Of a stretch of DNA of 64,000 nucleotides, positions 3,280 through 64,000 are shown one piece after another (the first letter of the stretch is position 1; each line of letters opens with the position of its first letter). Under the pieces are notes generated by a model. The model made no database searches. It saw nothing but the letters and a program-made list of their open reading frames with translations, and had not been told where the DNA came from. The stretch spans positions 1 through 64,000 of IMG/VR virus record IMGVR_UViG_2936390555_000003. One strand, written 5' to 3'. A program made the position numbers and the translations under genes. The DNA is from a virus (lineage: Duplodnaviria; Heunggongvirae; Uroviricota; Caudoviricetes).

Positions 3280-3298
3280 TTGTGAGAGGACATGACAC

Positions 3299-5284
3299 AT
3301 GAATGTTAATAGCTTACTAAGGAAAAGCCTGGTGGAATATATTCCGGAGGCGCAATTGCATAGCGATGGGACATATCGGTGCGCATGTCCTATTCATAAC
3401 GGTGATAACCCAACGTCATTCACTATCTTTCCACAGGAGAATACATTCCATTGCTTCTCCTGTGGAGCCCATGGCAACATCATTAACTTTGTCATGGAGC
3501 GTGACAGCGTATGCTTCGACACCGCAGTCAAAACCCTCTGTGATGATTTCGGTGTTGAGATTGATGATCCGAAGTACAAGGAGCAGCTTGATATTACCCA
3601 GCGTAATGCAAGGTGGGCAGTGGGTATGCAGAGACAGCTCCCACGCATCATTGATTACCTGCACAAGCGCGGGCTGACCGATGAATCCATCAAGACATTT
3701 GGTCTTGGGTACAGCGAAAAGCTACAGGCTCTTTCGATTCCCATGTACGACACCTGGGGCCGGTGTGTGGCATTTCTCTATAGATACTTTGACCAGATGC
3801 CTAAGTACAAGAACAGCAAGAATATAGATGGACTCTTTGTTAAGGGTAAGTTCTTGTATGGCCTTCCACAGGCACAGCGGTTCCTGCGCAAGACGAAGAC
3901 TCTCATGCTTTGCGAGGGAGCCATGGATGCCATCAGTGCAATCCAGCAGGAGAACTGCTGTGTAGCCTACTGTGGTATCAGTGTTGGCAAGGCTCACATC
4001 GAGCAGATAAAGGAAGTCATTAAGCCAATTGGTGCCAAGGTTGTCCTGTGTCCTGACAATGATGGCAAGGCTGGCAAGTTTGTTCTGAGAGCCCGTGACT
4101 TATTCATGAAGCAAGCACCGGACACGGTTGTCAAAGTAGCCGTGATACCTGATGGGGCAAAGGACTTCAACGACATGCTTGTCCAGGGCATGGATATAGC
4201 CAACGATTGCAAGTATGAATCCGTGGACTTGTACTGTGTAAAGCAGATTGTAGCCAATGAGCCCGACAGGGATATGCAGGAAAAGCAAGTGGTCGCTTTC
4301 ATGTGTACCGTGAGGAACCCTTTGACTCGTGCTGATATAGCTGAATATCTTGCTGACGTATGGGAGCGCGATGTAGCTCTGGTTCGTGAGTTATTCAATA
4401 TCAAGCAGGATACAGCCGAGGAACAAATCAAGGACATCATGACAGTGGACGTTGGGTATCAGAGGCTGGAACATAAGAAGGTCGAGGAAACCTTCGGAGT
4501 TGGCTTTGATAACATCGACAATACCATTCAGTTCACAAGGAAGAATGTGGTTATCCTTGGAGCGTACAGTGGTTCTGGCAAGACTACCATGTTAGCCGAG
4601 TGGATATTGCACTGGTGCATCAAGTGCCACAAGAAAGTCCTGTTCTTCTCACTGGAGATGCCAGTGGAAGACATAATGAAAATCCTCATATCCAAGATTG
4701 TGCAGATACAGCAGTTCAAGGTATACGAGTATATCAAGGAGCGTCCTGATACCTATGAGCTAATCATGGATGCCCTGAAGAAATACCTGTTCATCGTGGA
4801 CAAGAACTACTTATCCTTTGATGATATGGGAAACTACATCAAGCTCCTGGCCTCACGCGATATTATGGTTGACATAGTAGCCGTGGATTACTTCCAGTAC
4901 ATGCAGGGCACTGACACGCTGGAAGGGCAGGAGAATACAGCGAAGAACATGAAAGCCTTCGCAAAAGAGAATAACGTGACATTGTTCATGCTTTCACAGC
5001 TCAATAAGGGAAGTCAAAAGGATGGCAGCGGAAAATTCAGAGAGCCGGTGCAGACTGACCTCATGGGCTCAGGTGCTATAGGCAATTCAGGTGATTACGT
5101 GGTTGCTATATGGAGACCAGCGCAGGTTCCTGGCTTATCACCGATTGACCGTGAGCATGTGAAGTACGACACGATGTTCAAGATAATCAAGGCTCGCGAG
5201 GTAAGAAGTGGTGACATCATATTTAATCTGGTGTACAACCCTGATACCTCACGATTAATGGAAAAGATTGGAGAGACAGTATAA
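3299..5284 (+). CDS. bifunctional DNA primase / DnaB-family replicative helicase
   Basis: N-terminal zinc-binding CHC2 motif (CACPIHNGDNPTSFTIF...FHCFSCGAHGN). TOPRIM motifs (LMLCEGAMDAISA...VLCPDNDGKAGK). C-terminal Walker A GAYSGSGKTT and DnaB-like VDYFQYM. Confidence 0.9.
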   Translation: MNVNSLLRKSLVEYIPEAQLHSDGTYRCACPIHNGDNPTSFTIFPQENTFHCFSCGAHGNIINFVMERDSVCFDTAVKTLCDDFGVEIDDPKYKEQLDITQRNARWAVGMQRQLPRIIDYLHKRGLTDESIKTFGLGYSEKLQALSIPMYDTWGRCVAFLYRYFDQMPKYKNSKNIDGLFVKGKFLYGLPQAQRFLRKTKTLMLCEGAMDAISAIQQENCCVAYCGISVGKAHIEQIKEVIKPIGAKVVLCPDNDGKAGKFVLRARDLFMKQAPDTVVKVAVIPDGAKDFNDMLVQGMDIANDCKYESVDLYCVKQIVANEPDRDMQEKQVVAFMCTVRNPLTRADIAEYLADVWERDVALVRELFNIKQDTAEEQIKDIMTVDVGYQRLEHKKVEETFGVGFDNIDNTIQFTRKNVVILGAYSGSGKTTMLAEWILHWCIKCHKKVLFFSLEMPVEDIMKILISKIVQIQQFKVYEYIKERPDTYELIMDALKKYLFIVDKNYLSFDDMGNYIKLLASRDIMVDIVAVDYFQYMQGTDTLEGQENTAKNMKAFAKENNVTLFMLSQLNKGSQKDGSGKFREPVQTDLMGSGAIGNSGDYVVAIWRPAQVPGLSPIDREHVKYDTMFKIIKAREVRSGDIIFNLVYNPDTSRLMEKIGETV

Positions 5285-9135: not shown

Positions 9136-9333
9136 ATGTTCTATGAAAGCATGATAAAACTGAAAAAGAAGAACATCGAGGCCGTAATTAAAATCCCGTT
9201 TGATACCAGGGATGAAGCGTTGGTTGGGTTCAATAGGTTACTTGATATGCTTGATGAAAGCCACGATGATACCTTGAAGGTATTGAATAGCTTTGCTGGC
9301 AATGGTGTTAAGGAGGAGTCGCATGTTTTATGA
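9136..9333 (+). CDS. hypothetical protein (65 aa)
   Basis: RBS CTGAGGAGGAATTG before ATG 9136. Confidence 0.5.
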   Translation: MFYESMIKLKKKNIEAVIKIPFDTRDEALVGFNRLLDMLDESHDDTLKVLNSFAGNGVKEESHVL

Positions 9334-10100
9334 CAATGAAATCTCCATGGGTATAATGGAGAAGAAGTATTTACAGCCAGGGGAAACCCCAGAGCAGTGG
9401 CTGGACAGGGTGGTGTCCATATTCTCCCCTGATTTGCAGGATGATATAAGGTATGCCATTAGTCAGGCTGACTTCTTGCCAGCAGGGAGAACCTTGGCTG
9501 GCGCAGGACTCAAGGGAAAGCGTAAGATGAGTACGTCTAACTGCTATATTTGTCCTTCACCAAAGGATAACATCGAATCCATATTTGATACAGCGAAAAT
9601 GGTTGCTCGCATCAGTAGCTATGGTGGTGGCTGTGGGATAGCATTGGATAACTTGAGACCGAAGGATGCACTGGTAAACAATAGTGCAAGAACATCAACG
9701 GGTGCCGTGAGCTTCCTGAATCTCTTTGATACGACAGGCTCAATTATTGGCCAGGCTGGAAGACGTGCAGCTTTGATGGTTGGTTTACGCTGTGACCATC
9801 CTGACATTTATGAGTTCCTTCGTGTCAAGGAGAATAACGAAAAACTTGCTTCCATGAACATCAGTATTAAATTCACTAATGAATTTATGGAGGCGGTGCG
9901 TGACCATAAGAAATTCCATCTTCACTTTGAATCCGTGCATGAAAACATTGAGCGTGACATTGATGCCGCTGAATTTTTTGAGGAATTCTGCAAGGTCAAT
10001 GCTGACTGGGGAGACCCAGGGTGCATCTTCATCGACAGGGTAAGGAGCTACCACTTGCTCAGTGGTTATCCTGAGTATCAGATTGATATATCCAATCCGT
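9323..10100 (+). CDS. nrdJ: class II (adenosylcobalamin-type) ribonucleotide reductase NrdJ, exon 1
   Basis: RBS AAGGAGGAG before ATG 9323. RNR motifs SYGGGCGIALDNLRP and GQAGRRAALMVGL. Exon ends ...ISNP + T at 10100, where the listed ORF hits the first intron codon TAA. Confidence 0.8.
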
Positions 10101-10309
10101 AAAGTGTATGCGGCGTTGCATGGTAACATGCAAATGAAAATCCCCTCTGAATAACTTGGAAGCCCTAACGTAAAGCCGAGGGTGACAGGGAGCAAGGGTA
10201 ATGCCAGCTTGAGAGAAGTAAGCGAGGGGACATCCCATGTGGATGGTGCGGTACTCCAGACGACAAACACTGTTATACCAGGTGTGCTATGGAAACATAG
10301 TGTCGTAGG
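10101..10309 (+). ncRNA. ORF-less group I self-splicing intron interrupting nrdJ at the NPC(thiyl-Cys) codon
   Basis: Exon 1 ends ...AAUCCGU with U before the splice site. The internal guide GCGG (10110-10113) pairs with CCGU (G·U at the splice site). P2 hairpin TTGCATG-GTAA-CATGCAA. P3-like pairing CCCCTC(10143-48)/GAGGGG(10225-30). Terminal G at 10309. Splicing T|GT restores the Cys codon and the frame (NPCAEYYGIGGNSCNLGSINL). Confidence 0.6.
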
Positions 10310-11724
10310 GTGCAGAATATTATGGTATAGGTGGTAACAGCTGCAACCTTGGTTCCATCAATCTTTATAACATGATTGATGACAAGTTCACTCGCGAAGC
10401 GCATGTGAACTATGAACGCTTGGGAACTGTCGTAAACATTGCTGTTCAGGCACTCGATGAAATCCTTACTTATGGCTATGGTATGCAGCCATTAGATCTG
10501 AATCGCAAGGTCATTGATGACTGGCGCAGCATAGGACTTGGTATCTTCGGTCTTGCGGATGCACTGGTTGCTATGGGTATACGTTATGGCAGCAAGGAGT
10601 CAATTGAATTTGTCTCTGATGTCATGGAACACATCATGCTCTATGCCTTGGAAACATCATCAGACCTGGCTCATCACTATGGCTCATTCAGAAAGTATGA
10701 TTTCGAGAAGATTTGCGAGTCTCAGATAATCAAAGCTTTCCCTTACATGAGGGATAAAATAGAAATGGATGGGCTCCGTAATGGCTCACTGATTTCCATC
10801 GCTCCAACAGGCACTATTTCCCTGTTTGCCGGGCGGTTCACTGGTGGTGTGGAGCCTATGTATCAGGTGGCATACGAGAGAACCTCCCATTCCACTGAGG
10901 ACGAAGGAAAGACCTTCTTTGTCTATGCTCGTGGCGTGGAAGACCTCCTGAAATTCCATGGGATTGACCCTCAGAAAATCACGGTGGACGAGATTAAGGC
11001 ACGGTTCCCATTTGTTATTGAGTCTCATGAGGTGCCATGGAAAGAGCGTGTGGCTCTCCAGGGTGTAATGCAGGATTACGTTGACAACTCCATCAGCTCC
11101 ACGGTAAACCTGCCTAACAGTGCAACATGGGAAGATATTCGTGACATCTACATGTTTGCATGGGAGCAGGGGCTCAAGGGAATAACCGTGTTCCGTGATG
11201 GGTGCAAGCGTGGCAATATCCTTGGCGTATCTAAGGATGAGCCAGTTGAGTCAATGTATAACATGGTTGAACCGCTGAAGCGTGGCAGTACCTATCGCGT
11301 TGATGGCTCCACATTCAAACAGCGGACAGCCTGTGTTCCTTCCATGTATGTCACGGTGAACAAGTCAGACACAGGCGACCTCATGGAGGTATTCACTAAT
11401 GCCAGCGGTGGTTGTCAGGCCAACATTAATACCATTACTCGCCTGGTTTCCCTTTTACTACGCGCTGGTGTCAAGCGTGACATTGTAATCGAGGAGCTTC
11501 GTGAGAATCAGTGTCCTGCATGTCAGGCTCTTAGAAGGCAGGGAAAATCCCTTTCCCTGAGCTGCGGTAATGCCATTGCAGATGCCATGACAGCCATGCT
11601 GGACGATGAATCTACCGTGGAGCATGATGGCTACCTGGTATGCCCTGAGTGTGGCAAGCATACCCTTAGACCAGAGGGTAAATGCTTTACATGCAGTAAC
11701 TGTGGCTACAGCAAATGTGATTGA
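10310..11724 (+). CDS. nrdJ: NrdJ exon 2
   Basis: In-frame continuation CAEYYGIGGNSCNLGSINLYNM..., with the same C-x10-CNLGSINL spacing as NrdJ active-site loops. C-terminal zinc ribbon CPECGK...CFTCSNCGYSKC. Confidence 0.8.
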
Positions 11725-30783: not shown

Positions 30784-30871
30784 GGAGCCATGGCAGAGTG
30801 GTTTATTGCAGCGGTCTCTAAAACCGATGATGTTCACGCATCCGTAGGTTCAAATCCTACTGGCTCCGCCA
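30784..30871 (+). tRNA. amber-suppressor tRNA, serine type: tRNA-Ser(CUA), class II with 16-nt variable arm
   Basis: Cloverleaf: acceptor GGAGCCA/UGGCUCC; U8; D-stem GCAG/UUGC with G18G19; anticodon stem CGGU/ACCG; loop CUCUAAA (anticodon CUA at 30818-30820); variable arm UGAUGUUCACGCAUCC (GAUG/CAUC stem); T-arm GUAGG-UUCAAAU-CCUAC; discriminator G73; CCA encoded. SerRS identity elements present (G1-C72, G2-C71, A3-U70, C11-G24, long arm, G73). Anticodon loop equals bacterial tRNA-Ser(CGA) with G35 changed to U. Confidence 0.8.
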
Positions 30872-31430: not shown

Positions 31431-31553
31431 ATGGAAGAAAAGAATCGCAGACCTCGCCATGTGAAAAAGGGCAAGGATCTGCGCAGACATGTGAAGGACA
31501 GGGATGACTACAGGGCAGCCAAGAAAGAAATATTTGAGCATAGAGCACGATGA
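31431..31553 (+). CDS. small basic protein (40 aa; MEEKNRRPRHVKKGKDLRRHVKDRDDYRAAKKEIFEHRAR), tentative
   Basis: ATG 3 nt after the upstream stop. Overlaps the next start (ATGAATG). Coordinates hand-derived. Confidence 0.3.
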   Translation: MEEKNRRPRHVKKGKDLRRHVKDRDDYRAAKKEIFEHRAR

Positions 31554-32506
31554 ATGACTTGGTTACAACGATAGACGATAGAGAAGCCGTGACATCCAGC
31601 CGTGTCGTGGCAACAGCCTTTGAAAAAAGGCATGACAATGTTTTGCGAGACATAAGGGGTCTCCTCAAAATTGAGGATACCCAAGGAATGTTCTACAAGA
31701 CTACATATATCAATAAGCAGAATGGACAGAAGTACACGGAGTACCTCATGAACCGCGATGGGTTTGCCATACTGGTCATGGGGTTCACGGGAGCTAAAGC
31801 CCTTGAGTGGAAAATGAAATTCCTGAATCAGTTCAACGCCATGGAATCCGTCATCAGACAGCACGGTCTCGAAGGGAAGGTGCAGAAGTCTCTTGATGCC
31901 ATATCTGACCTGCGAAAGCAATTGAAGGACTCAGGCATACTGAGGGAGTACATAGCTCCCCATCATTTCTTTGACCACCTGGCAGCTCGATGGAAGGAAG
32001 CAACGCACCGTGAGCGCATAAGGGACTTCTATGATGATATTGGTTCTTACGCTGGCGTGAATGTTCCTTATAGCAACATGATAAACATTACAGTCAAGGA
32101 TTGGCTGTTGAATCATGTTGGACTCAGTACCATTGAGGAGCTTGTGATTGGGCTGGAAACACATACGATTACATATTCTAACCGAGGCAAGCCAGTGTCA
32201 AAGCATGGTGTCTTCGGGAACAAAACTGAATGGACAAAGATTGTTAATGAGTTCGGCGGTCGATGTGCTTATTGCGGAGCTGAGGGAACGCCATTGATTG
32301 CCGAACATATCATTTCACAATCCGCGCTGTCCAAAGACCACCCTGAGAAAGTTGACTTGATAGGAAACATTATTCCTGCCTGTCAGCAATGCAACCGATA
32401 GAAATACACGACCGACTTTGAGAAATGGTTCCCAAAGCAGCCATTCTACTCAAAGGCACGGCACAAGAAGATAATAGAACACATGGAGAAGTATGAGGTG
32501 AAGTGA
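31550..32506 (+). CDS. Rha-family regulatory domain fused to HNH endonuclease; contains 1 in-frame TAG (32399-32401)
   Basis: N-terminal Rha motif TSSRVVATAFEKRHDNVLRDIRGLL. C-terminal HNH motif CAYCGAEGTPLIAEHIISQ...NIIPACQQCNR. The frame continues through TAG for 34 more codons to TGA 32504-32506. HNH next to terL is typical. Confidence 0.6.
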
Positions 32507-41848: not shown

Positions 41849-42060
41849 AGGAAAAGACTGAATGGAGAAACCTATTTGCCTCCATTGTCCAGAACACTAG
41901 CATGACAATGGAGGATATAGGCAATCTCCGAATCAATCAGATGGAAGATTTATTGGAAGGTATGAATGAGAATGCGGAAGCATTGGAACGCGAGATGAAG
42001 GGCGAGGTAAAGCCACTGGAAGGCGATGCTGCCATTAGAAAACTTATGGGAGGGATGTAA
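41483..42060 (+). CDS. tail assembly chaperone G-T frameshift fusion product (-1 frameshift at 41831-41840)
   Basis: -1 frame reads ...KSDVKEKTEWRNLFASIVQNTSMTMEDIGNLRINQMEDLLEGMNENAEALEREMKGEVKPLEGDAAIRKLMGGM, ending just before the tape-measure ATG. Confidence 0.45.
41831..41840 (+). promoter_or_regulatory. programmed -1 ribosomal frameshift slippery site (A AAA AAA AAG)
   Basis: A9G run at the 3' end of the chaperone gene. The -1 frame is open for ~73 further codons (to TAA 42058-42060), encoding a plausible gpT-like extension. Confidence 0.5.
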
Positions 42061-42061
42061 T

Positions 42062-45000
42062 ATGGCCACAGAAAACGATAAGCCAAAACTTGGATTGGAT
42101 ATATCCATAAGCACAACGAGCGCATTTAACTAGGTTAGGCATCTGAAAGAAGAAATCCAGAAGCTCAAGAATTTAGCCGATAAAGGAATTGACTTCTCCG
42201 TAAACATTGGCAGTGTTATTAAGCAGGCGAACAGCGCACTCAAAGAGGCACGTAAATCTATTGATGACATCAAGAAGTCAGCAATGGAGGGTGGCAAACT
42301 CAAGCTTGAACTTTCAGAGACTGATATAGCAAAGATTAACCAGGGCATGACTGAGTTGCAGACTGCCATGACCAAGGCATCTACGCTGGGTATGGAGGCG
42401 TGGGCTAGAGTTGACCGCGGTATAACTAGGGCTCGCAAGAACCAGAGTGAATTTATGAGGGAAAGCTATCACACGAATTTCCAGAATTTCGCCGGTCAAT
42501 CTGAAGATCTCGTTCTGAAGACATAGAACGAAAATGTGAAGAATGCAATTGCCCATCAGATGAATAAGAAGTATTCTGAGTATGACTGGTCTGACCCGGC
42601 CAAGCTGGAAGAGGTGAGAAAAAAATTCTTTTAGCTTGTAGATTCATACAAAGATACTGCCGACCTCATGAATCCAGAGAGATTTGCAAGGTTTATTTCT
42701 GAGTATAGAGCTATAGTAGACCACGCACCTGCATCCGCGGATATAGGAGACTCCCTTAGAATATTAAAGGAGCGCAACATGGATAAAGTGTTCCAAAAGT
42801 ATTTCAAAGATACTCATATTGCAGGGATGGAAAACATTTTCAAACAGGTTGCTACGCTTGACGATAAGAACTTTGAGTCTATTAAACCGACAATAAAAGA
42901 GGCAATAGGTAATATACGTGAAGCAGGGGGTAACAGCTCTTTGTTCGCTCCACTGGCAAAGCAATACAAGGATAATCCTAGAATGCTTGATCTTTTACCA
43001 ATCTATCCTAATAAAATTATTGACTGGGACAAGATGTTATATGGCGAGGGCGCAACTAAGACCTCAGTAAATCTCGATGCACTGCATAAGGTAAGCGAGG
43101 CTTTGCGCCAGGCTATTATGGAAGTCGTTAAAAGCGTAGAGCAGATAAAGAACGCTGCTGCTACGACTGCTGTTTCAATGAATACGATAGCACCTTCATC
43201 GGCTTCTCCTGTACCGCCTGAGAAGAGCAATCTTGTAGTGCAGGTGAAGCAGGAGAACGATGAAATCCAGAAAGCCCTGAAGCAGCGTGAAGCTCTCTTG
43301 AAGCAGCTTAACGATATGAATAACCTTGTAGCTAAAAGGCCATACGAGCATCGCCTGGAAAAATTGGATAAACTGAATGCAACCCTGTCAACTAATGGCT
43401 ATGGCATACAGCTTCCAAGGTTCTATGCAAAAAGCGGTGACAAGGAAGCTACAAATGCAGCTTATGACAATTATCTCCGCGAGGCATCCGGTTACAATTC
43501 CATGCGCAAAGAGCTTACTTCCATGATGGAACGTGGTATCACGCCTACCAAGGAGCATTGGAATGAAATCAGGAATAACTATTTGTCCATGCTTGACTCC
43601 CTGAGGGAAAAGCGTTACAAGATTTCTCCGGTATCAGATGATTTTACTGGCGGAACCTATGAAAAGTTCCTTGCAAAAATGAGGGAGTTCCAGCAGACCG
43701 CAAAAGCAAATGGTATCGTACCTGTTACCGCTGATGCCCGTCAGGTCAACGAGAAAATTGCTGAGTTACGTAAAGCCTTGGCATCCCTGGAAGCATTTAG
43801 CATTAGGATTACAGCGAACACTGAGCCTATCATTAAGGCAGTTGACTCCGTGATTGCCAGATTGCAGTCTATGAAGGACGTGGCTATCACCGTAAATGCG
43901 AACACAAAGCCGTTCATAGAGGCGATAGATGCTTGCATGGCAAAGTGCAAAGAGCTCAAGCCAAATATAGAGTTCGATGCAGCAAAACTTAACACAGAGC
44001 TTGCAAAGATAAAAACTGTTCTCCCTATTGCTATTGACTTTGAGAAATATCGTGAGGAGCTTCAGAAAATCCAGAAGTACACCAATAGCTTACCACATAT
44101 GATACTCAAGGCTGGACTTGACACAAGCGAGTTCATTAAATCCGTTGAGGCTGCTAAAATTAAAGCCAAAGAAATAAAGGATATTCGTTTGAATATTGAT
44201 GCGAGCGGTGTTGAACCTGGCTATAACAAGTTCAAGGATTTCGTTGATTATGCATACAGGCACAATCCTATTGCAATTGGTGTTACAGTGAATGAAACTA
44301 GTCTCAGTGTTATTGACTTGTTGCTCAATAGGGTCCAGGCATTACAGTAGGCATCTAGGTTGCAGATTGATTTTAAGAAACTCTATGATGATATAAAGGT
44401 TCTTGAGCAGAACTGTCCTACCATTAAATTGCCTATCTCAATTGATAAAAATATGTTCAAGGAGCAGGTGGGTAAAATCGCTTCTCCAAAGATTTCCACT
44501 CAGCTCAAGATTGAACGACAGAAATTCCGTGATGAAATCAAAGATGTTGGCGAGAAACTTCCTAAGATAAAGGTGGGTATCGGAGTTGATGCAAAGGGGT
44601 TCCATGACGAAGTTAAGAACGTTGGCTCACAGCTTCCTACGGTAAAGGTTCCTGTTACAGTTGACTCGAAGTTCTTTAAGGACGAAACCGCACGCATACA
44701 GGAAATACTTGATACCATAAAACCCGTATCCATAAAGGTCAATGCTGACACACAGCAGTTCATTTCTACTATAAAGGAGTGCGTTGATGAGCTCCACAAG
44801 CTCAAGGACATAACCGTTACAGTAAAAGGTAAGAAGCCTAAAGAAAAAACAGCTGCTGTTACAGAGGATACTCCAAAGAAGGCTAAGGGGAAAGCCAAGA
44901 AGGAGATGGACTACGATGAGCTCCTTACTATGCTCAAGATAAATCAGTTTTCTGATGGTATATCGCAGAGTAAATCCACTGTAGGCGCAAGGCTCAAGAG

Positions 45001-48000
45001 CGTAAGGAACCTCCAGAGTGCAGCGATGCAAGGCGGATGGCAACCGAGCGCCGAGGATTTGGCATGGCTGGCAAATGAGCGCAATGCACTTGAACGGAAA
45101 AACGAAGCGGTCAAGCTGAACAGTACCAGACCTGGGACAAACCTTATTGACGAGTATATTCGCTTGAGAGAACAGGAGTCTAAAAGATTCTCTGAATAGC
45201 TCCGCAATCAGATGAACGAGCGTGTTAAGCAGGAAAACAAGATTACTGATGAGGAACTTGCTGCAACCAAAAGACAGCTTCGTAGAAATCTCAAGGAATG
45301 GCAAAAGAATAATACTGCAATTGCGAAGGCAAAAGAAGAAGCTCGTAAGAGAGAGTTAGCCAAGGAAGCTCAGGCTGCCAAAGAGCAGAAGGAATACAGC
45401 GACCGCACGGCAAAACTTCTTGTTCAGGAAAGATTCGCTCAAACAAAGGAACAGGAAAAGGCAGAGGAAAAAGCTCGCAAGCGTAGATTAGCTCAGGAAG
45501 CTCAGGCTACCAAAGAGCAGAAGGAGTACAGTGACCGCACGGCAAAGCTTATGACCCAGGAAACCAATAGGCTCCAGGCATTGAAGGATAAACTTGCAAA
45601 GCTTCAGAATGACATTACCATCTCCCAGCTTTCCGGCAAGAAGATTGCCATGGATTCCTGGCTGAGGAAGAGTGACAGGGAGGCCGAGCTTATCAATAGC
45701 ATCATGTCCATGGGTGGCACGGCAAGCGCGAAGTACAATGGCATCGCAGGATTCAAGGAATACGTTAAGCCTTGGAACCAGCAGGATAAACTCAAGACTG
45801 ACAATAAGGAATTGAAGGAAGCCCTTAAAACATACGAGCGTATCGAAGCCATCCTTGTACGCATCAGGAAAACAGGAATTATCCCTGATAATATCGACAA
45901 GTTGAAGCAGAAAGAATTGGAAGCAAGGTCAATCATTCAGAAGAGCTTTGGCGGAGCACTTGGTTCTCCTGCACAGCAAGCTGCCTTCAATGCAAATTAT
46001 CCGCAGGTATTGACACAGCAGAATATCGATGCTGCAAAGTCCGGCGCTGAGATAAGCAAGAGGCTCAAGGGTGAAATGCGGAGTGCCATGAGCGAGTTCA
46101 AGAGCCTCATAAAAGAGGTAAGGCGCGATGCGATAAATGGCACTGGTCGCTCTGAATACTACTTGGCAAACCGCAGTAGCAGGATTGCTGAGATACTCCA
46201 GGGAGTTGATAAGAATACCAGGAACGCTCTTTTGATGAGGTATGAGAATGATATTCATAGGGCATACGCAAACCCTGCTGACATTAACGCCAAGGCAATA
46301 GCCGAGGTAGAAAAGAGACTTGCAGAGCGTTGGCAGAAGTTTGATATGCTTGACAACGTCACTCCAAAGGCATATACAAATATGTATCAGTATCTCGTGA
46401 GAGCCGTAGAAAAAATTGGCTCCATGGGCGGCATGTACGATGGTCGCGTGCTGACCAAGACTCCGGAGGAGTACAAGGCAAGCTATGTGAGACCTTCGAC
46501 TGGTATAGATGAAGCTGCACGGAAGCAGCAGAATTTAAATGCTATTCAGGAAAGATACAACGCTGAACTTGAGAAGCAGAATGCCCTGATGACCTACGGC
46601 ACACTTCTTTCCCAGAAGCAGATTGATACTGCAATCAGGAAACTCGAAGCATTGCGCAAGAAATACGAGGAACTGGGCGGTGAGCGTAGCAAGCTTCAGC
46701 TGTCTGACATTGAAGCTGCTGGAACTACTGCTCGCGATGTGAACTCTGCAATCGTTGACCGCAATGTGAAAGCATGGAGCACGGATAATGTGGCAACCGT
46801 GTCCCAGGGCTTATCGCATCTCAGCGGAATGCAACAGGCCCAGTACAATGCATGGCTCCAGGACCCAAGCAAGAATAACCTGAAGAACCTTACGCTTACC
46901 ACAGCAGAGATGAGGAAGCTTAACAGGGAGGCCCAGCGTTATCAGCGTGTTGTCAACGACACCAATAAGACGATGGAAAGCCTTAATAATAAGATTCACA
47001 ATCATCTTTCCTGGATGACAAGCGGACTGTTCATTGGAACTATCTTTGCTATTCCTGCTGAGGTAATGAATCAGTGGAAAGAACTGGAGTATAGCCTCGC
47101 TGGTATCAGGCAGGTTATCACGGAAATCGAAAAGAACGAGGGAGGCAATGCGTTTAAAGAAGCATTTGATCTTATGGAGATTGCCAAAAAGAACGGCGTT
47201 GGCGTTGAGGAGACCATGGATGCAGCCAAGTCTATCGGTCGTATGTATGGCAAGAACCCTATCGACTCAAACGGTGTCGAAGAAAAGGGCGTTGGTATTC
47301 GCAATACAAACCTGATTACTTCACAGGCAGCGAAGATGGCAGTAGCCGATGCCTTCGATATGGAGAATGCATTCAAGGGATTGGAGGCAGCATTATCCCA
47401 GTGGAACTTGCAGACAGAGGACACAAACCAGCTTCTCATCAATACCAATCGTATACTGGAAGCATGGACTATCACAGCTCATGCCGGTGCTGCATCGGCT
47501 CAGGACATTGGGCAGGCAATTGAAATTGCTGGTACTGCCGCTGCAAATGCAGGCGTGTCATTCGAGTTCTTCAATGCCCTTGTTGCTACAGGTGTACGGC
47601 AGACTGCACGAAGCGGTAATGAAATCGGTCAGGCAATCAAGTCCATGATGGTTTCCATGCAGTCAAATAAATCCCTGAAAGCCTTGAAGGAATGGGGAAT
47701 AGAGTTGTATAATGTAAGCGAGGATGGCACGAAATCCATGCGCTCCATGGAGGACATTATTCTCGATGTATCCCTGCTCATGAACAATACGGCAAAAGAT
47801 ACCAGAGGACTGCTGACTACGCTGTCTGGTGGTAAATACCAGTATTCAAAAGTATCAGCAATGCTGGGCAATTATAAAGAATTGCTCCGCATGATGAAAC
47901 TCATTAACAACCCTAATGATAATCTCATGGAAGGCAAGCCTGGCTTATTCATCGACCAGCAGGTTGAAGTGCAGATGGACACCTTACAGAGAAAAATCAA

Positions 48001-51000
48001 TTCCATCAAAGCGGATGCACAAAACATCATATTTGACATTGGTGTAAACGCAGGTGGCTTGGATGCCCTCAAGTGGCTCGCTGACAAGATAGATGACATC
48101 ATTGTAGGTACACAGAAAATAGGGGATAAATGGGGAGAGACCGGTACTAAGATAGCTGGGGTAACAGTAGCAGTCTTGGCTTTCTATAAGGCTGTTGAAA
48201 AAATATAGGTAGCCATGAAGACATACGAGATGTACAAGGCTGCCTACAATGCTACTGGCAACACGTAGTTTTTCCAGTCACTTCTTGACAATAGAAAGAA
48301 GGAAATAGAGCTCAAGGCTTCTCAGAAAGTGGCGAGTGCCATGAGCGACAATGCTATTGTAGGTGGGAGAGCCGCTAGTACCGAAGCTAATACAATAGCA
48401 ACCAATGCTAATACAGCTGCGAGAACTGCTAATACCGCAAGCAATACTGCGAACACGGCAGCTACAGCGGAAAATACCGTGGCCAGCGCAGCGAATACAG
48501 CTAGGAGGGCAGCGAACACAGCTGCTACCGAAGCTAATACTGTAGCAACAGTTGCTAATGTCACGGCTCAAAGGTCTGCCGCTGGTGCAGCAACGGGAGC
48601 AGCCACTTCAATGGGTGTAATGGCTACCGCTGGCATGACTGCTCGTGCTGGCCTTGCTGCCCTGGGCGGCCCGCTTGGTGTTGCAATTACAGCTTTGACA
48701 ATCCTTATTCCTCTTGGAATAGAATATGCATCAACTCTGGGCGAAGAAGCAAACGCTGCAAAGAAAGCTGCGGATGCACTTGCCGAGAAGAATAATGCAG
48801 TAGACCAGGAAATTTCCAAGGCTAACCAGCGTGAGCACGCAGCTATAAGCCTGGCAAACGCTTACAATAATCTAAGTGTGCAGATAGCTAATGGCACCCT
48901 GCGCACCGAGGAGGCTCAGAAGGCCGAAGCAGAAATGGCTGACCTCAAGCATACGCTGATTGGTATAGTTGGTCAGGAAGCAGTGGCAATAGACGAAAAC
49001 GGCAGGATTAACATTGACACCATCAAGCGAATGAGTAAAGCTGAGAAACAGGCAGCTATTGATAAGCTCAGGGCTGACCGTGATAAGCTTGAGTCAGAAA
49101 AGGCTGAGACTCAGAATACTATTGAGCTGACAAAACAGCGCATTGAAGCTATCAAATCTGAGATTGAAGCCATGAGGGAGCGTGCTGGTGCCAGCAGTAC
49201 ATGGGATAAGATAGCTGCCTCCGTATACCGTGGAGCAGCTTGGTTTGCACATGCTACAGGTCAGACCACGGACGAAGAGTATGAAACCAATTTGGAAAAA
49301 GCAAACCTCCGTGAACAGGGCGTTCCCGCCGAAAAACTCGCTGAACTTGATATGGCAACCAAAAGGGTATCTGAGTTACAAGGTAATCTTGATAAGCTTA
49401 ACCCAAACATTGATACTCTGAATAATGCAATAGGAAACCTTACATCCCTTGCAGAAGAGGGAAGTCAGACGTACAACCATGGCGAAATAGAAGAGCCGGA
49501 GGAAAAAGCCTCCGCTGGTAAATCCGCTGGCTCAGACTCTCGCCAGAACAACATGCAGGACCCTCGCATCCTTGCGCATGTCAGTCGTATTGATGAAATC
49601 GCAAGCAATACCAGCAACCAGGTATCTCTGCTTAATGACATTAAGTCCCAGCAGGGTAACTCCAAGGAGCTTTCCATACAGACCTTCGATACATACCAGA
49701 GGGGCATCGACGAGCTCAAGGCTGAACGCCAGAGGCTCAACGATTACCTGTATACCAAGAACGTAAATGCGTTCAATGGTCAGTTCTCTGTAACCATTAG
49801 CGATACCGCTGCATCCGATGCGGTGGTCGAGGCTGCCATGCCGTATCTTGAGAAGACCATGGAAAATGGTACCGAGGGCTGTGTCGAGGCTGTTACCAAG
49901 ATTGGCGAAAAAACCAGCAGCTTCCTTGCGCAAGAACTCAAGAACGGTGTAGTCCGTGTGCCTGTTCTTGTATCCGATGCTGAGAACGCTGGCATACCTG
50001 TAGTTCCTTACGATGCCAATAATGTAGGTGCCGGGGATGTTATCGTGTACGACAATAATGACCATGTGGTTATGGCTGATGGCAAGGGAGGGTATGTAGG
50101 CAATAGCTCCGGACTGAATCGTGTTGTACATAGACCTGACTACACAGCTATGGGCGGTCAGGTTCCTACCCAGATTATCAAGACTGGCACCATTGCTGGC
50201 GAAAGAAAAGTCCAGTGGAGCGACAGTCTTGCCAATTATGCAATTGATAATGATGGAACCATGCTTGATGCTGGTACCTGGGATAAGGCAGGGCTCTCTG
50301 GGCAAATTAAACTCATTGAGCAGGCATTGCAGGTCAAGGGCCAGGAGAATAACGAGTTCCTCATGCAGTTCTCCAAGGTGCTACTTGTCGACCTCAAGGC
50401 TCTCAATGATGCCGATGCTAAAACCAGAAGCCTTATTACCCAACAGGCTAATCAGTGGTTCACCGACATGAACGCTGAGGTATCACAGGCAGGAACCACG
50501 GCATCCCAGAAGGGGAACCGTGAGCTGTTCATGCTTGGCTCAGGAGCTACCGAATATGACAAGGCTCGCATCGAGCTCCAGAAGAACACGGCTGAACTCA
50601 GTGCTATGAGTGAAATCGTGGAACGTAAGCAGACACAGGATCTGAAGAATACCGTTGCTGGCAAAGCGTTCCTTGACAGCTACCTGCAGAAGCAGATGAC
50701 TCAGCGCGACCTCCAGTTTAAAACCGTTGTGGCCATGTATAACGATGCAAAAGCAACCACTGACCATAATGTCAAGATGCGTGATTATGGGAACAATAAT
50801 ACCGATGACCGCATGGGTGTCAAGCGAGCCACGGATACCCTGGCAGATGCGATGGTACAGGTTGAGCTTCAGCGGAAACAGTTGGAGCTTGCGAGAGATA
50901 CGGACGAAAAGAATTACCAGGAAATCCGCAAGATGGAAGAGTCTTACAAGGATGCCCTGGAAGCACTTCGTACCGCACAGAGACAGTACAACCAGCAGGT

Positions 51001-52204
51001 GCTCGATGGATTCGAGCAGATAGCCGAGGACTTCATGTTCAACGGCAAGTCCTTCAGGGATATTATTGATAATCTCTGGCAGGACCTGGGCAAGGATGCA
51101 TTGAGGGCATTGTTCGGGCAGGATATTAGCGGTAATCATTCCTTCCTTGCAACCCTGCTTGGTATTGGAAAGCCTGATGAGGAAATGGCGAAGGCACAGG
51201 CACAGGAGGAGCTCAAGAATGTTCCGCTTATCAATAACACCAGTGCTACTGACAGGAACACCTTGGCAGTAAACCAGCTTACTCAGGCTATGCTTGGTCA
51301 GGCACTTACCCCGTTGGCTACTTCCAAGTATACGTTTGATGCTACACGAAATGCGTATGAATCCGCGAGACCATTCAGCTTGCAGGAGAACGCATGGAAC
51401 AATGCGGTAGCAACGACAGGCTTTGGCTCACAGCCTACCTACGATTTCGAGGCTGACATGAAGCAGTGGAAGCAGAGCAACGATTACCTGAACCGCACGA
51501 TGGCACAGTCGAATCGCTTGAACGCCACCGGGAACACCGAACAGAAGAAGAGCAATGATGCTCTTGGCAAGAACACCAATGCTAATCTTCAGGTGGCAAC
51601 CGGGCTCATGGGCATCGGCAATGCCTTTGCAAACGGTGACTGGCTGGGCGGTCTCCTTGGCATAGCTCAGGTGGGCATGGGCTTCGGTTGGTTCAAGGCT
51701 GACGGTGGCAAGTTTGCTGACGGTGGTGCACCAGCTGGCAAGGTCACCGGTGCTGGCACTGGTCGCAGTGATAGCATCCTTGCTTATCTTGCCAACAAGA
51801 ACAAGTTCGTATGGCTGTCCAATGGCGAATATGTCATCAACGAGAAATCAGCGAAGGCACTTGGATACGATACTCTCGATGCCCTCAATGGATATGCCAC
51901 TGGAGGCAGTCTGGATTCATCGCCTGTCAATCCAACACCGTACATTCCTACGATTAATCCGCAGGTAGCCAAGAAGGCTACAAGGATTTCCGGGAACAGT
52001 GCCACGGAAGCCCTGCTGAGAAAGCAGAATAAATACATGGCCGAGCAGAACTCCATGCTCAGGAACATGGGCGAGTCCGGGAACGGTCAGGTGGTTGTAC
52101 TGAATACCCAGGCATCCAGTGCAGATGTTATGAAAGCACTTCAGGAAAATCCTAGAGCTGTTCAGGCTATCCTTGGTCGACAGCAGAGAATGGGCTTTAG
52201 ATAA
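42062..52204 (+). CDS. tail tape measure protein, single ~3,380-codon reading frame with 7 in-frame TAG (42131, 42524, 42632, 44348, 45197, 48206, 48266)
   Basis: RBS GGAGGGATGTAAT before ATG 42062. ORF-track pieces 42284.., 42668.., 44360.., 45212.., 48329.. are all in one frame, separated only by TAG, with no RBS or credible starts. TMP features: coiled-coil repeats, ...LSWMTSGLFIGTIFAIPAEVMNQW...AGIRQV, hydrophobic GGPLGVAITALTILIPLGI, low-complexity ANTA repeats. Ends TAA 52202-52204. Confidence 0.7.
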
Positions 52205-60059: not shown

Positions 60060-60500
60060 ATGCTTAACAATAGCGGGGCCGTGGTGAGCGATATTATCGT
60101 GTCCGCCACGGAAATTCCAACGATGCTCCCAGCTGGCTATGGAGACTGGCAGCCATTCGTTAGCGGTGACTACAAGTATAGAGAGGCACTGTTGAAGTGT
60201 GTAATGAAAATAGAAGGAAACACGAATACAATTGTTCTTCCAAAGTATACCGTGTTCGTAGACCTGCCTGACATTCAGGACCATGCGGTGACAAGGATTG
60301 AGTCGGCTGAAAACACATACATTCCATTCAACCTTGATTTCTATCGTGTGCCGGAGGTGACCATTACTACCGTCGGTGGCATGGAAGTAGTGATACCGAT
60401 TATTACGAAGGTTACTGAGGACGGTTTCTGGGTTGAGCTAAGAAACCTGGATAAGGAATTGTCTACAGGTACTATTTCATGGTCGGCTTTGGGATGCTAA
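60060..60500 (+). CDS. hypothetical protein (146 aa)
   Basis: RBS TTTAGGAGGACATG. No TAG. Confidence 0.55.
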   Translation: MLNNSGAVVSDIIVSATEIPTMLPAGYGDWQPFVSGDYKYREALLKCVMKIEGNTNTIVLPKYTVFVDLPDIQDHAVTRIESAENTYIPFNLDFYRVPEVTITTVGGMEVVIPIITKVTEDGFWVELRNLDKELSTGTISWSALGC

Positions 60501-60513
60501 GGAGGAGTATTGA

Positions 60514-60882
60514 ATGACAGACTATCAAATGTTTTAGCTTGTAACCAATTGGATAAACCTGATTATCATACCGTTTGCCATTTGGCTTTACCGGTATCTC
60601 TCCAATTGGAAAAAGGAAAATGCAAAGTAGGAAAACGAAAAGGAAAAGAGGCGCAGGGCACAGCAAATGGCTATCATGGCGTTGCTGAGAGACCGCATCC
60701 TGCAGAGCGGAAGGTACTTTGTAAAACTTGGGGCTATCCCATAGGATATAAAGGTATCGTTGCTCCGCATGGGCGAGGCATATGCTGACCTTGGAGGTAA
60801 CGGTGAGGGGCATAGGATGGTAGAGCAAATCAGGGCTTTGCCAGTAGATGACCTGGTGATTGAGCATAGGAGGGATAAGTAA
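60514..60882 (+). CDS. holin-like small membrane protein; 3 in-frame TAG (60535, 60628, 60742), tentative
   Basis: RBS CTAAGGAGGAGTATTGA before ATG 60514. One TM helix LVTNWINLIIIPFAIWLYRYL followed by a charged tail. Stop TAA overlaps the next ATG (TAATG). A different frame from track ORF 60510..60788. Confidence 0.4.
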
Positions 60883-62327
60883 TGCAGAATTATACAGAGA
60901 TTTCAGAGAATCAGACATTGAGGGATTCGAGGAGCTTGCTTCTGAATAACGATAAGACTGCAATGAGCAACAGCAGTGGCGAGAGTTTTCCAACGCAGAA
61001 CCTTCAGATTGGCATGTTCTGCTATAGGACTGACGAAAAGAAACTGTATCAGCTCATGGACAACATGCCTACATGGAAGCTCGTAGTTGACATGAGTGGC
61101 GATGGGGCCAAGGTTGCTTAGGTTGATAAAGATGGCGTGAACGAGGATGCGTTGCAGGACGAGGCTGTCACTGAAAACAAAATTTTAAACAAGGCTGTTT
61201 CCACGGAAAAGCTTGCGGACGAGGCTGTCACCGGCAAAAAGGTGGACATCCTGAGCCTCAGGAGCTATATTGTTGCAGCTACTCCGCGGTACTATGCGCG
61301 CGCCGAGGTTCCGGCTGCATCAGCAAGGACTATCATTAGTATCCCGTCTGACATTTGGATAAATATCAACAATAATGGTTACGTTATTAATGGTGGAACG
61401 GATATTGACATTAACGTGAGTGACAATTGGGACAATGCAACCTATGCTACCGCATAGAATCGTAAGGGCAAGGATTTCTATATGTATGCTTGCATTGGCG
61501 ACAATGGGATAAAGCTTGTGCTTTCCGCTAATAGCACTGTTCCAACTGGGTACAATGCCAACACATCTCGTAAGATTGGCGGTTTCCATTGCCTCTGCGC
61601 TAATGTTGGCTCCATCACTGGACATACACTGTCTGGCTACGTTGCTGGTGACATTATCCCTGGCTCCGTGTGGGACCTGCTTCACAGGGCAAAGAGTGAT
61701 AACGTTGGTATGGTTTATCATGAAGGACTTGGCATATGGGCTGACATCTATGGGGCATCATGGGATGGCTCCAAGCTTACGAGCGTATACGGCGGAATCT
61801 TTGCCGACGGAGAGAGCGCAAAGAGGTTCCATGGAGAGTTGTTCGTTGAGGAGTTTGGCAAGATTGGTAAGCGTTTGATTAGCCGTGCAGAGTTCCAGGT
61901 GCTGGCAAAGGGAAGTAATGAATGTACCAATATATCTGGTTCTGCTGACCCAGGTACTACAGGTGGGCATGTTGATACCGCTGGTCGGCGCATGATTTCT
62001 AATTTTGGTCTTGAGGATTGCTGCGGAGCAATGTGGTCATGGACAAGTGATTTGCTTGAGAATTATCCTGGGAGCGTATGGAACTCCGCGAACTACTACT
62101 TGGATAGCTATGCTTGGCAAGAGAGGTCTGTGTATAATCCGGATATTGATTCCCAGAAGTATGGTTCCTGCTTTGGCTTGCTTCGTCGGTGTCTAGTCGG
62201 TGGCGATTGGAGCGTTGGTTCGTATTGCGGTTCCCGTGCGGCGGATTGTGACAATTTCTCGTCTGACCGCTTTGCCGCTTTCGGTGGGCGTGCGGTGTCG
62301 GAGCCGAGGGTTGTTCATCTCGGCTAA
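60882..62327 (+). CDS. tail fibre / receptor-binding protein, DGR target (C-terminal C-type-lectin/FGE-like variable region); 2 in-frame TAG (61119, 61455)
   Basis: ORFs 60882.., 61137.. and 61482..62327 share one frame. N-terminal tail-fibre repeats (AVTENKILNKAVSTEKLADEAVTGKKVD). C-terminal ...WSWTSD...CLVGGDWSVGSYCGSRAADCDNFSSDRFAAFGGRAV contains the variable region. Confidence 0.7.
62175..62302 (+). repeat. DGR variable region (VR)
   Basis: 128 bp aligned to the TR with 17 mismatches. Every mismatch falls at a TR adenine (G or T in VR). Confidence 0.85.
62301..62327 (+). promoter_or_regulatory. GC-rich hairpin immediately 3' of VR (GAGCCGAG-ggttgttcat-CTCGGCT), DGR IMH/hairpin-like element
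   Basis: Perfect 7-bp inverted repeat at the VR 3' boundary, as found downstream of VRs in characterised DGRs. Confidence 0.5.
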
Positions 62328-62464
62328 TCGGCTAAAAGAGTAAAACGGGACGGACGAATGGACGACGGTACTTCTGGTCGGCGGTTCGTCAAGACGATTA
62401 AAAACCGTCGCGTGAGCGACGGGCGATATATATTTTTTCTAGGTTCATAAGTCGTTCCTGCAAT

Positions 62465-62592
62465 GGCTTGCTTCGTCGGTGTCTAGTCGGTGGCAATTGG
62501 AGCAATGGTTCGTATTGCAGTTCCCGTGCAGCGAATTGTAACAATTTCTCGTCTAACCGCAATGCCACTATCAGTGGGCGTGCAGTGTCGGA
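62465..62592 (+). repeat. DGR template repeat (TR)
   Basis: Non-coding copy of the VR between the target gene and the RT. Adenines at all variable positions. Confidence 0.85.
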
Positions 62593-62715
62593 TATGGGGG
62601 TACAATGGTGTCGAGCAACCCTCAGCTGGGCTTATGAACCTTCCTGCAAAGGAAAATACACAACAGGGGAAGGAGTGTGGCTAGTAATGAAAATGAACGT
62701 CATAGAGCCTCCGTT

Positions 62716-63738
62716 ATGAAACGTCATGGCAATCTTTTTGACCTTATTGCCAGCAAGGAAAACTTATTGGTAGCATTTAATAAGGCTAAGAAGGGAAAGT
62801 CACGGCAAAGGAAGGTTAATGTGGTTGCCAGGAACTTGGATAGAATGCTTAGTGATTTGCATGAGAGCTTGGTTTCTGGTAACTACCATACCTCTCCATA
62901 TAAAACGAGGACTATATATGAGCCAAAGGAAAGGCTTATATACATATTACCATTTTATCCAGATAGAATAGTACATCATGCAATTATGAATGTACTTGAG
63001 CCGGTCTGGAATAACTTAATGTATTACCATAGCTACGCTTGTCGTAAGGGCAAGGGGATGCACCGTGGCAGTACCTTATGTATGGCGTATGTAAAGCGAT
63101 ATAAATATGTGTTGAAATGCGATGTGTCTAAATTTTATCCGAGCATTAATCATGAAGTGCTAAAGAAAATCATTAGGAAGAAAATTAAAGACGGTAGATT
63201 ACTTATGCTTCTTGACGAGATTATTGATAGCACTGGCACACCAACAAATGTACCTATAGGAAACTATCTTAGTCAGTGGTTTGGCAATCTTTATCTTAAT
63301 GAGCTCGATGAAATGGTCAAGCATAAGCTTGGTGTTAAATCGTATATTCGTTATAGCGATGATTTCGTATTGTTTAGCAACAACAAGTAGGAGCTGCATG
63401 AATGGGCGAGGAGAATAAGGGAGTTCCTTGCATCAAAGCTTTGCTTGCGCATGAGTAAGTGCGATGTATTTCCGGTGAGTAGAGGGGTTGACTTCCTTGG
63501 ATATAGGCATTTTCCAAATAAAATCCTGTGTCGCAAAAGGACGGTGAAGTCGTCCAAGAGGCATGTGAAGGAAACCATGCATCTTCTTAGAAGCGGACGT
63601 ATATCAAAGGAGCAAGCATTAAGCAAGTTGGCAAGTGTAGTCGGATGGATTAAGCACGCCCAGTGTCACAACCTGTATAATGCTATGGAGATAGACAGGA
63701 TAAAAAAGGAAGTGTTAGAATATGAAGAAATTCAGTGA
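62716..63738 (+). CDS. DGR reverse transcriptase; 1 in-frame TAG (63388-63390)
   Basis: Start MKRHGNLFDLIASKENLLVAFNKAKKGK (alternative GTG 62677). RT motifs incl. YSDDFVLF (YxDD). The frame continues after TAG (...FSNNK-TAG-ELHEWARRI...GVDFLGYRHF...) to TGA 63736-63738. Confidence 0.8.
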
Positions 63739-64000
63739 TTTTGCAAAGACGGAAGCCGGGCTTGTCGGCGATAAGCTAAAGATAAGCGAGGTTATGAATA
63801 AGAAAATCGTGGTCACAGGCTATCGTATGCTTACATAGAAGCATAATAGCAGACCATTGCTGCATCTGCAGTTTGAGCTTGAGGGCAAAACGCATACCAC
63901 GTTTACCAATAGCGTAGTGTTAATCCGTCAGTGCGAGACATATCAGGAGGAAATTCCATTTGAGACGATGATTGTCAAGCAGTCCAATTATTACACGTTT
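63722..64000 (+). CDS. hypothetical protein, partial (runs off the window); at least 1 in-frame TAG (~63836)
   Basis: RBS AAAAAGGAAGTGTTAGAAT before ATG 63722. Overlaps the RT 3' end. Confidence 0.35.

Follow-up and report, generated by a model that had tools for sequence, protein, structure and literature searches.

The window analysed here is a 64,000-nt stretch of tailed-phage DNA (positions 1 to 64,000 of the IMG/VR record IMGVR_UViG_2936390555_000003). Close to its 3' end it carries a diversity-generating retroelement (DGR) made up of a target gene with a variable repeat (VR), a template repeat (TR), a structured spacer and a reverse transcriptase (RT) gene; the RT gene overlaps a short open reading frame (ORF), orf94, whose product has a predicted oligonucleotide/oligosaccharide-binding (OB) fold. 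The features of this cassette are the following:

60882-62327, + strand: DGR target gene (481 codons; TAG in frame at 61119-61121 and 61455-61457), encoding an Mtd-like receptor-binding tail protein
62164-62302, + strand: VR, codons 428-474 of the target, a 139-nt repeat of the TR
62302-62325, + strand: VR-specific end resembling an initiation of mutagenic homing (IMH) site, with a hairpin (AGCCGAG, loop GGTTGTTCAT, CTCGGCT) that overlaps the target stop codon
62405-62422, strand unassigned: GC-rich, terminator-like hairpin (CCGTCGCGTGAGCGACGG) between VR and TR
62454-62592, + strand: TR, a 139-nt repeat, followed by an IMH*-like sequence at 62593-62601
62593-62715, + strand: putative structured spacer RNA from the TR to the RT gene, with a core conserved in 15 DGR loci
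62716-63738, + strand: DGR RT gene, 340 codons from its ATG, with an in-frame TAG at 63388-63390
63722-64000 (running off the window end), + strand: orf94, candidate OB-fold DGR accessory gene, 94 codons in the related locus L001, with a TAG at 63836-63838

VR and TR are direct repeats whose matching positions lie a constant 290 nt apart. The two differ at 16 positions, and every one of these falls where the TR has an adenine (10 A>G and 6 A>T; hypergeometric P = 1.4e-14), so that 16 of the 26 TR adenines are altered in the VR. Most of the changes (14/16) affect codon positions 1-2, mainly of AAY codons. An earlier note on this DNA, made from its letters alone, had described 128-bp repeats with 17 differences, all at TR adenines; the repeats are real and the adenine rule holds without exception in the alignment, the length being 139 nt and the count 16, 14 of them within the 128-nt range. 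A repeat pair that differs at TR adenines only was present both in the window and in L001, and no further VR was found in the window. The homology ends at ..GGA/GCCGAGGGT in the VR and at ..GGA/TATGGGGGT in the TR, a boundary that resembles the IMH/IMH* pair; the same GA/GCC (VR) versus GA/TAC (TR) transition was seen again in related cassettes.

The GC hairpin that had been noticed next to the VR 3' end is predicted at 62302-62325, with a 7-bp stem and a 10-nt loop. Its DNA fold has an energy of -9 kcal/mol (z = -2.76; 1 of 200 shuffles as low), and it is kept in L001 and absent at the TR copy. The sequence therefore contains an IMH-like end at the VR, a differing IMH*-like end at the TR and a downstream hairpin, whose function is putative. 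The second hairpin, at 62405-62422, received a terminator score on the - strand only, and on the + strand the T-run begins 11 nt past the stem; it may end the target transcript.

The spacer between the TR and the RT gene is predicted to form a P1 helix (62619-62622 paired with 62666-69), a P2 hairpin (62641-45 with 62650-54), a single-stranded invariant segment, AAAAUACACAAC, at 62653-64, and a 3' stem that surrounds UAGUAA...GAA (62679-62699). Across loci the same order recurs, with an invariant A-rich single strand, AAAAYACAMRAC, after P2 and then the stem around UAGUAR...GAA. All four P2 pairs were compensatory in RNAalifold (4/4). Since the MAFFT columns shifted the register of P1, stems were counted sequence by sequence; tabulated in this way, P1 and P2 covary in nine loci, P1 being either CCCU/AGGG or CUCC/GGAG, and in most loci an independent minimum free energy fold shows the 3' stem in the corresponding position. 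Among related loci the TR-to-RT spacer measures 113-158 nt and the VR-to-TR gap 44-190 nt. An Rfam scan of positions 60500-64000, with E values up to 1, gave zero matches.

The target protein contains the second domain of Mtd (Pfam PF21916, mtd_2nd, E = 2e-18), which is also carried by 989 target homologues, and it matched the tail protein family phrog_11262 (E = 2e-55). Its residues 169-475 align with the crystal structure of Mtd (PDB 1yu1, E = 1e-15) through the C-terminus; the VR thus lies, as the earlier note had placed it, at the 3' end of a tail-fibre gene with a C-type-lectin-like (Mtd/FGE-type) product. Residues 2-325 of the RT align with residues 3-320 of bRT (PDB 8ub7, E = 9e-56), and the alignment continues across the in-frame TAG; the RT also matched phrog_1423 (E = 3e-121) and Pfam RVT_1. 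The YxDD and (I/L)GxxxSQ motifs of DGR RTs are present as YSDD (63352-63363) and IGNYLSQ (63256-63276), and the TAG sits between YSDD and the thumb, both the catalytic motifs and the thumb being intact once the TAG is decoded. The start annotated at NCBI for this gene is a GTG at 62677. Together, the adenine rule, the DGR-type RT, the lectin-like target and the IMH-like boundary agree with the description of the element as a complete DGR.

Related sequences indicate that this DGR has been at work. L001 (IMG/VR UViG_3300045988_145964) shares 91% nucleotide identity with the window and has the same cassette, also with 16 mismatches at TR adenines only, and the substitutions differ from those of the window. 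The two TRs differ at nine positions, of which seven are mirrored in the respective VRs and the other two fit adenine mutagenesis; this implies that TR-to-VR copying has taken place since the window and L001 diverged. In addition, database clusters of the target protein hold at least 12 near-identical proteins with distinct VR alleles and invariant flanks, their C-termini varying almost solely at codons with a TR adenine. Polymorphism was thus found in the VR (12 alleles) with a constant TR and flanks, and with TR changes mirrored in the VR. The earlier note had named an identical VR across related genomes as a reason to abandon the DGR; as the VRs vary both among near-identical proteins and in L001, that situation is refuted. 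Judging from these alleles, the DGR appears to be active, or very recently to have been so. No match was obtained for the VR and IMH in an exact-pattern scan of JGI metagenome contigs, nor for the locus when INPHARED phages were searched with megablast. In another related locus, L008, positions 3081-4393 upstream of the RT gene hold several copies that resemble a VR, together with a near-identical duplication of 493 nt, which suggests multiple or duplicated targets.

The same data bear on the idea of decay, in which the DGR would be a relic and the TAG of its RT an inactivating nonsense mutation. Under the standard code the RT does stop prematurely, and in the close relative this codon is a sense codon. 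A relic, however, would be hard to reconcile with mismatches confined to adenines with no drift at other bases, with an RT that is otherwise intact, or with VRs that differ among near-identical phages and into which TR changes have been copied; moreover, TAG interrupts TerL and most essential late genes and must therefore be decoded. We consider decay extremely improbable.

With respect to accessory genes, the 151 nt between the VR end and the TR start leave no space for avd, in agreement with the earlier note. A Pfam scan (bAvd/PF05635) of 33 small ORFs, covering the window and 9 kb beyond it (taken from L001) of the ~76-kb genome, recovered only the spiked positive control, the Avd of locus L014 (E = 1.6e-33). 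The single L014 Avd sequence, used in a phmmer search of the window ORFs that is a weaker test than the Pfam scan, found none. The search for avd homologues beyond the cassette, which the note had advised, was thus negative over the window and these 9 kb. The cassette does not have the BPP-1-type, Avd-dependent organisation with avd inside it (architecture B); it has the target-TR-RT arrangement that is free of avd, HRDC, MSL and CH1 (architecture A).

What follows the RT gene instead is orf94, which shares its first 17 nt with the end of that gene. Its product gave no significant match to Pfam, PHROGs or PDB sequences, and belongs to a large family: 204 proteins were collected in a word-indexed search and 1,087 cluster representatives in an exhaustive one, 598 of them at E <= 1e-10. 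The family members are single domains of ~95 aa that conserve an N-terminal KFSDF motif and have no acidic tail; their median pI of 7.8 argues that orf94 is no simple basic substitute for Avd. The predicted fold has the five-stranded closed-barrel topology of OB proteins, and the best Foldseek matches among viral models (BFVD) were RT-domain proteins. This fold suggests that orf94 binds single-stranded nucleic acid.

The genomic company of orf94 is constant. Neighbourhoods were read for 10 looked-up family members and for the loci already fetched. A homologue follows the RT gene in the IMG/VR loci L001, L003, L004, L005, L008 and L015, which have structural neighbours unlike those of the window, and for 10 of 10 members looked up on long contigs the gene is situated 0-500 nt downstream of an RVT_1 gene, which itself follows a tail-fibre gene, in T7-like, Mu-like and siphovirus backbones. 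The INPHARED phage vir525 likewise has an orf94-type gene downstream of its RT, and there and in the IMG/VR loci the distance falls within the same 0-500 nt. A-only TR/VR pairs were present in all but one of the orf94-family loci checked. Start/stop overlap with the RT gene is common in the family, and in three proteins, P0322, P0383 and P0437 (507, 414 and 324 aa), the OB domain of orf94 is fused in frame to the C-terminus of RVT_1. Linkage, overlap and fusions indicate a physical partnership between orf94 and the RT, and the ORF at 63722, which the earlier note had put forward as the only candidate accessory factor, gains in standing from an RT-downstream position in every neighbourhood read and from the existence of RT fusions. 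The evidence for orf94 as a DGR accessory candidate is strong, and its biochemical role would be the one that the fold suggests.

It could be argued that orf94 is an ordinary structural or lysis gene that happens to stand beside a DGR with no need of an accessory protein, as architecture A would allow. The gene does border lysis genes, and 29% of DGRs have been classified as being without accessory genes (PMC5758913). Yet orf94 keeps its place beside the RT in unrelated backbones whose other flanking genes vary, it commonly overlaps the RT gene and at times is fused to it, and its predicted fold is of a nucleic-acid-binding type; a bystander role is accordingly quite improbable in our judgement. 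We found no report that links DGRs to an OB-fold accessory protein in the limited literature consulted, the 'PAG' candidates of Wu et al. being outside the comparison, and the RT-linked OB-fold family appears new.

Two candidates for more distant relatives of orf94 were discarded: the 119-aa ORF between VR and TR in L010/L011, similar by eye (15% probability in hhalign, negative in hmmsearch) and the C-terminal extension of the L012 RT (E = 0.7 only).

Other small genes were seen in related cassettes. An orf105 family (~100 aa) comes after orf94 in L001 (11305-11622, a place that falls just past the end of the window), L003 (11309-11605), L004 (11300-11590) and L005 (11340-11606), and directly after the RT in L002 (1234-1539); it is absent from some cassettes, and ORFs likened to it by size only follow orf94 in L027 and L037. 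It may be another component of the travelling module. A different family of ~110-128 aa stands directly after the RT in L006 (3719-4081, on a 176-kb contig), L010/L011 (11038-11424), L012 (7331-7693) and L013 (1540-1869), and may represent an alternative accessory gene.

The phage can be assigned to a host. The major capsid protein, the primase and the truncated RT of the window match exactly the proteins MSU08209.1, MSU08161.1 and MSU08232.1 of 'Veillonellaceae bacterium WCA-693-APC-5D-A', now Anaerovibrio slackiae, where they are encoded on a 171-kb contig; MSU08229.1 and MSU08231.1 are further proteins of this isolate that match the window. The strain comes from a pig-gut culture collection (PMC7738495). 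Together with the integrase and repressor genes at its start, these identities place the window in a temperate prophage, ~76 kb long, of the pig-gut Negativicute A. slackiae. Public records list the RT as a 237-aa 'hypothetical protein' and divide the target into pieces of 79 and 150 aa, because the annotation cuts both at TAG codons; the 150-aa fragment carries a VR identical to that of the window. In the output of metagenome gene callers these TAGs appear as Q. In the early part of the window, the barrel of a ribonucleotide reductase is split between two + strand ORFs, 9293-10102 and 10309-11724, that cover profile positions 1-211 and 226-522 and lie ~200 nt apart; an intron, an intein remnant or a split gene could account for it.

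The meaning of TAG in this genome depends on the module, as three further features illustrate:

1-993, - strand: tyrosine integrase gene (cut by the window start), ending in TAG
1241-1588, - strand: Cro/CI-type helix-turn-helix repressor gene, ending in TAG
30784-30871, + strand: phage suppressor tRNA(CUA), an ARAGORN cloverleaf at the head of the late block

Since the integrase and repressor genes both end in TAG and have none in frame, this codon is a stop in the lysogeny module and a sense codon in the late genes. The late + strand block at 31.5-64 kb (TerL, portal, capsid, tail) contains 39 in-frame TAGs, and the long early ORFs (~1.6-31 kb, both strands) contain none. Late in-frame TAGs accompanied by a phage tRNA(CUA) are an arrangement already known from recoded phages (10.1101/2021.08.26.457843). 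Within this block, the ORF just before TerL (31550-32506, + strand) joins an anti-repressor/Rha-like N-terminal part to a C-terminal HNH domain and has a single TAG, and a 3,392-codon ORF (42026-52204, + strand; seven in-frame TAGs) exists only if TAG is read as sense and presumably encodes a giant tail or tape-measure-like virion protein.

Several observations point to serine as the amino acid inserted. Bacterial tRNA-Ser combines a long variable arm with G73, the Leu and Tyr tRNAs have A73, and SerRS ignores the anticodon. The phage tRNA(CUA) is of class II: its acceptor stem has 7 bp and its variable-arm stem 5 bp, it has G73, G2-C71, A3-U70 and C11-G24, and its CCA is encoded. At the TAG of orf94 (63836), 53 of 56 homologues have Ser, the lone Q being a code-15 translation of the same TAG; the TAG of the HNH-domain ORF corresponds to Ser in 8/8 relatives and that of TerL in 8/10, and at target position 192 the homologues have A (11) or S (2). 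A comparison of the last 11 kb of the window with L001 showed TAG exchanged with TCA (twice), TCC, CAG and TGG, with two more CAG cases upstream, and four TAG/TCN swaps separate the window from its close relative. From these sequence features we take it as probable that TAG is read as Ser.

Glutamine, the code-15 assignment, is the competing decoding, in which the serine-like features would be coincidental. Three TAG/CAG differences from the close relative fit it, as do TAG positions that align with Q, K or E (RT codon 225 and position 117 of the ORF at 37724), and public gene callers do write Q; the Q residues at TAG in the 481-aa database proteins are nevertheless a convention of the code-15 translation table and were excluded as evidence. 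A survey of recoded phages reported only TAG>Gln and TGA>Trp where the phage code differs from that of the host (10.1101/2021.08.26.457843), and the phage-recoding literature that we searched makes no mention of serine for TAG. On the other side, a 5-bp variable-arm stem with G73 is Ser-type and not Gln-type, the conserved columns favour Ser (A or S at target position 192), and swaps of TAG with TCA or TCC need two nucleotide changes, for which synonymy is the best explanation. On balance a glutamine reading seems improbable, and serine remains the preferred assignment.

The recoding looks recent and limited to one phage lineage, because the TerL relatives L016 and L018-L024 (59-71% identity) have no TAG at the aligned TAG positions, where they use TCN Ser codons, and the regions fetched from them contain no tRNA(CUA). 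The close relative L017 has the same tRNA(CUA), which the parts fetched from standard-code relatives do not show. A scan of GTDB genomes for the suppressor tRNA, in which the anticodon was left free, and a BLAST search of the tRNA(CUA) against E. coli genomes both gave zero matches.

The earlier note had further proposed that the RT requires read-through of its TAG and that mutagenic retrohoming is thereby coupled to late suppressor expression. The in-frame TAG at 63388 is real and has to be decoded, but as a sense codon of the whole late module and not by leaky read-through. A purposeful coupling would find some support in the fact that a stop at codon 225 removes the thumb, as in the truncated NCBI protein, so that a full-length RT needs the tRNA(CUA), in the position of this tRNA at the head of the TAG block, and in the need of target and orf94 for suppression, with the TAGs at 61455 and 63836 conserved in L001. 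The RT codon itself is not conserved: it is CAG in the 91%-identical L001, it corresponds to E, K, Q, S, A or T in homologues, and the RT cluster mixes truncated and full-length forms. Nearly all late genes contain TAG, which leaves nothing specific to the DGR. As the codon is CAG in L001 and TAG is found in nearly all late genes, the RT has its TAG as a by-product of the recoding of the late module, and the codon is no DGR-specific switch; a dedicated device is in our view unlikely, if less so than the glutamine reading.

Taken together, we propose, with a probability of roughly 80%, that the locus is an active, Avd-less DGR among the late genes of an A. slackiae prophage that is temperate and TAG-recoded, a DGR in which an OB protein plays the role of Avd and TAG is most likely read as Ser. 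In such a system a transcript that contains the TR (62454-62592) and the structured spacer would be bound by the bRT-like RT, which would copy the TR into cDNA and misincorporate nucleotides opposite template adenines. The cDNA would then take the place of the VR (62164-62302), with the 3' boundary specific to the VR and its hairpin as guides, and ~15 codons would be re-randomised on the ligand-binding face of the lectin-like C-terminal domain of the Mtd-like protein. The part of Avd would be taken by the 94-aa OB-fold protein, a probable binder of the cDNA or of the TR/spacer RNA. The TAGs of target, RT and orf94 would be decoded by the phage tRNA(CUA), most likely as Ser; given the split of the genome into early standard-code and late TAG genes, the DGR would depend on the suppressor, and full-length DGR proteins would be made only when this tRNA is available, presumably late.

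Some points weigh against this proposal, beyond the TAG/CAG swaps and the Q, K or E positions mentioned above. A distant Avd could lie beyond detection, or inside the ~3 kb of the ~76-kb genome outside the scan; the RT-OB fusions might in principle have arisen from overlapping ORFs merged by 1-nt errors of assembly; and the linkage of orf94 to the RT falls short of proof of function. Hairpins 3' of the VR are inconsistent across related cassettes, an R>Y change in one of the VR variants (P0255) is left unexplained by adenine mutagenesis, and the activity of the DGR is inferred from population variation. A wider claim, namely that the ~95-aa OB protein is the missing subunit of a large Avd-less class of Mtd-type DGRs and that this prophage is the first natural phage with TAG>Ser through a supD-like tRNA, seems to us evenly balanced between being right and wrong.

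Avd is essential in the only well-studied DGR system, and about a quarter of DGRs are without it. The locus offers a concrete candidate for an alternative to Avd, one that is conserved, RT-linked, sometimes RT-fused and present in the prophage of a culturable host; the orf94 system could guide the design of smaller DGR mutagenesis tools and reconstitution, which has been achieved in E. coli for BPP-1 (PMC12875486). If TAG is indeed Ser, code-15 pipelines mistranslate these proteins, and the view that phages recode TAG only to Gln needs widening. The recoding, which looks recent in this lineage, also captures the beginnings of a code change. The DGR is unannotated as such in the genome record of the isolate, where its RT and target are broken at TAGs.

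The known system closest at hand is that of BPP-1/BMP-1 (mtd-avd-TR-brt), whose target (Mtd) and RT (bRT) are homologous to those of the window. BPP-1 shares with our cassette a VR at the 3' end of the target, adenine-specific mutagenesis, an IMH/IMH*-like boundary, a hairpin after the VR and a TR-RT spacer of ~120-140 nt. It differs in having avd; the window cassette is without it and has an OB-fold gene after the RT, as well as in-frame TAGs. In BPP-1 the structured Sp region recruits bRT-Avd, and the conserved spacer RNA of the window cassette parallels this region; look-alikes of the window spacer in BPP-1/BMP-1 (CUACGGCU.GG, GGCAAAAC and GAAAAUGGAA) were recognised by eye only.

Among other accessory and OB-fold proteins, CH1 (Wu et al. 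2018; 160-169 aa, acidic) is unlike orf94 in size and charge, and SSB/PriB proteins have no detectable sequence similarity to it; they differ further in that orf94 is a single domain with no acidic tail, genetically tied to a DGR RT.

Avd-less cassettes have been described in crAss-like phages. Those of crAss LMMB and lineage 3 have a target-TR-RT organisation (PMC7290462, PMC5758913), and an Avd-independent mechanism was proposed by Wu et al. 2018 (PMC5758913). The DGRs that zeta crAss-like phages carry are Avd-less, with amber codons in seven RT genes and suppressor tRNAs (PMC12386605), so that the combination of a DGR with codon recoding, which the earlier note had singled out, had already been published. 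The order target-VR-TR-RT is the same as in the window, and the RTs are 40-43% identical to that of the window (40% for crAss LMMB, reported to belong to lineage 3). These phages are nonetheless unrelated to the window phage, which is temperate, ~76 kb long, has an integrase and infects a Negativicute; on the crAss-sized contigs (L006, L010-L013) the ~110-128-aa ORF family occupies the place after the RT that the OB-fold gene has in the window, and the window phage probably reads TAG as Ser, not as Gln.

For serine-inserting amber suppression itself there are precedents. E. coli supD/serU and T4 psu1+ are tRNA-Ser species with a CUA anticodon, in which the anticodon change yields a serine-inserting amber suppressor. 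They are laboratory mutants, whereas the window tRNA is natural and fixed, and late genes depend on it. The code-15 phages of Borges et al. share with the window phage a standard-code lysogeny/early module beside a TAG late module, a phage tRNA(CUA), and integrase and repressor genes that end in TAG and are free of it in frame; they read TAG as Gln, and here the class II tRNA with G73 and the conserved sites point to Ser. In summary, the DGR itself is of a known type, and it is the RT-linked OB family, the probable TAG>Ser recoding and the deposited isolate host that set this locus apart.

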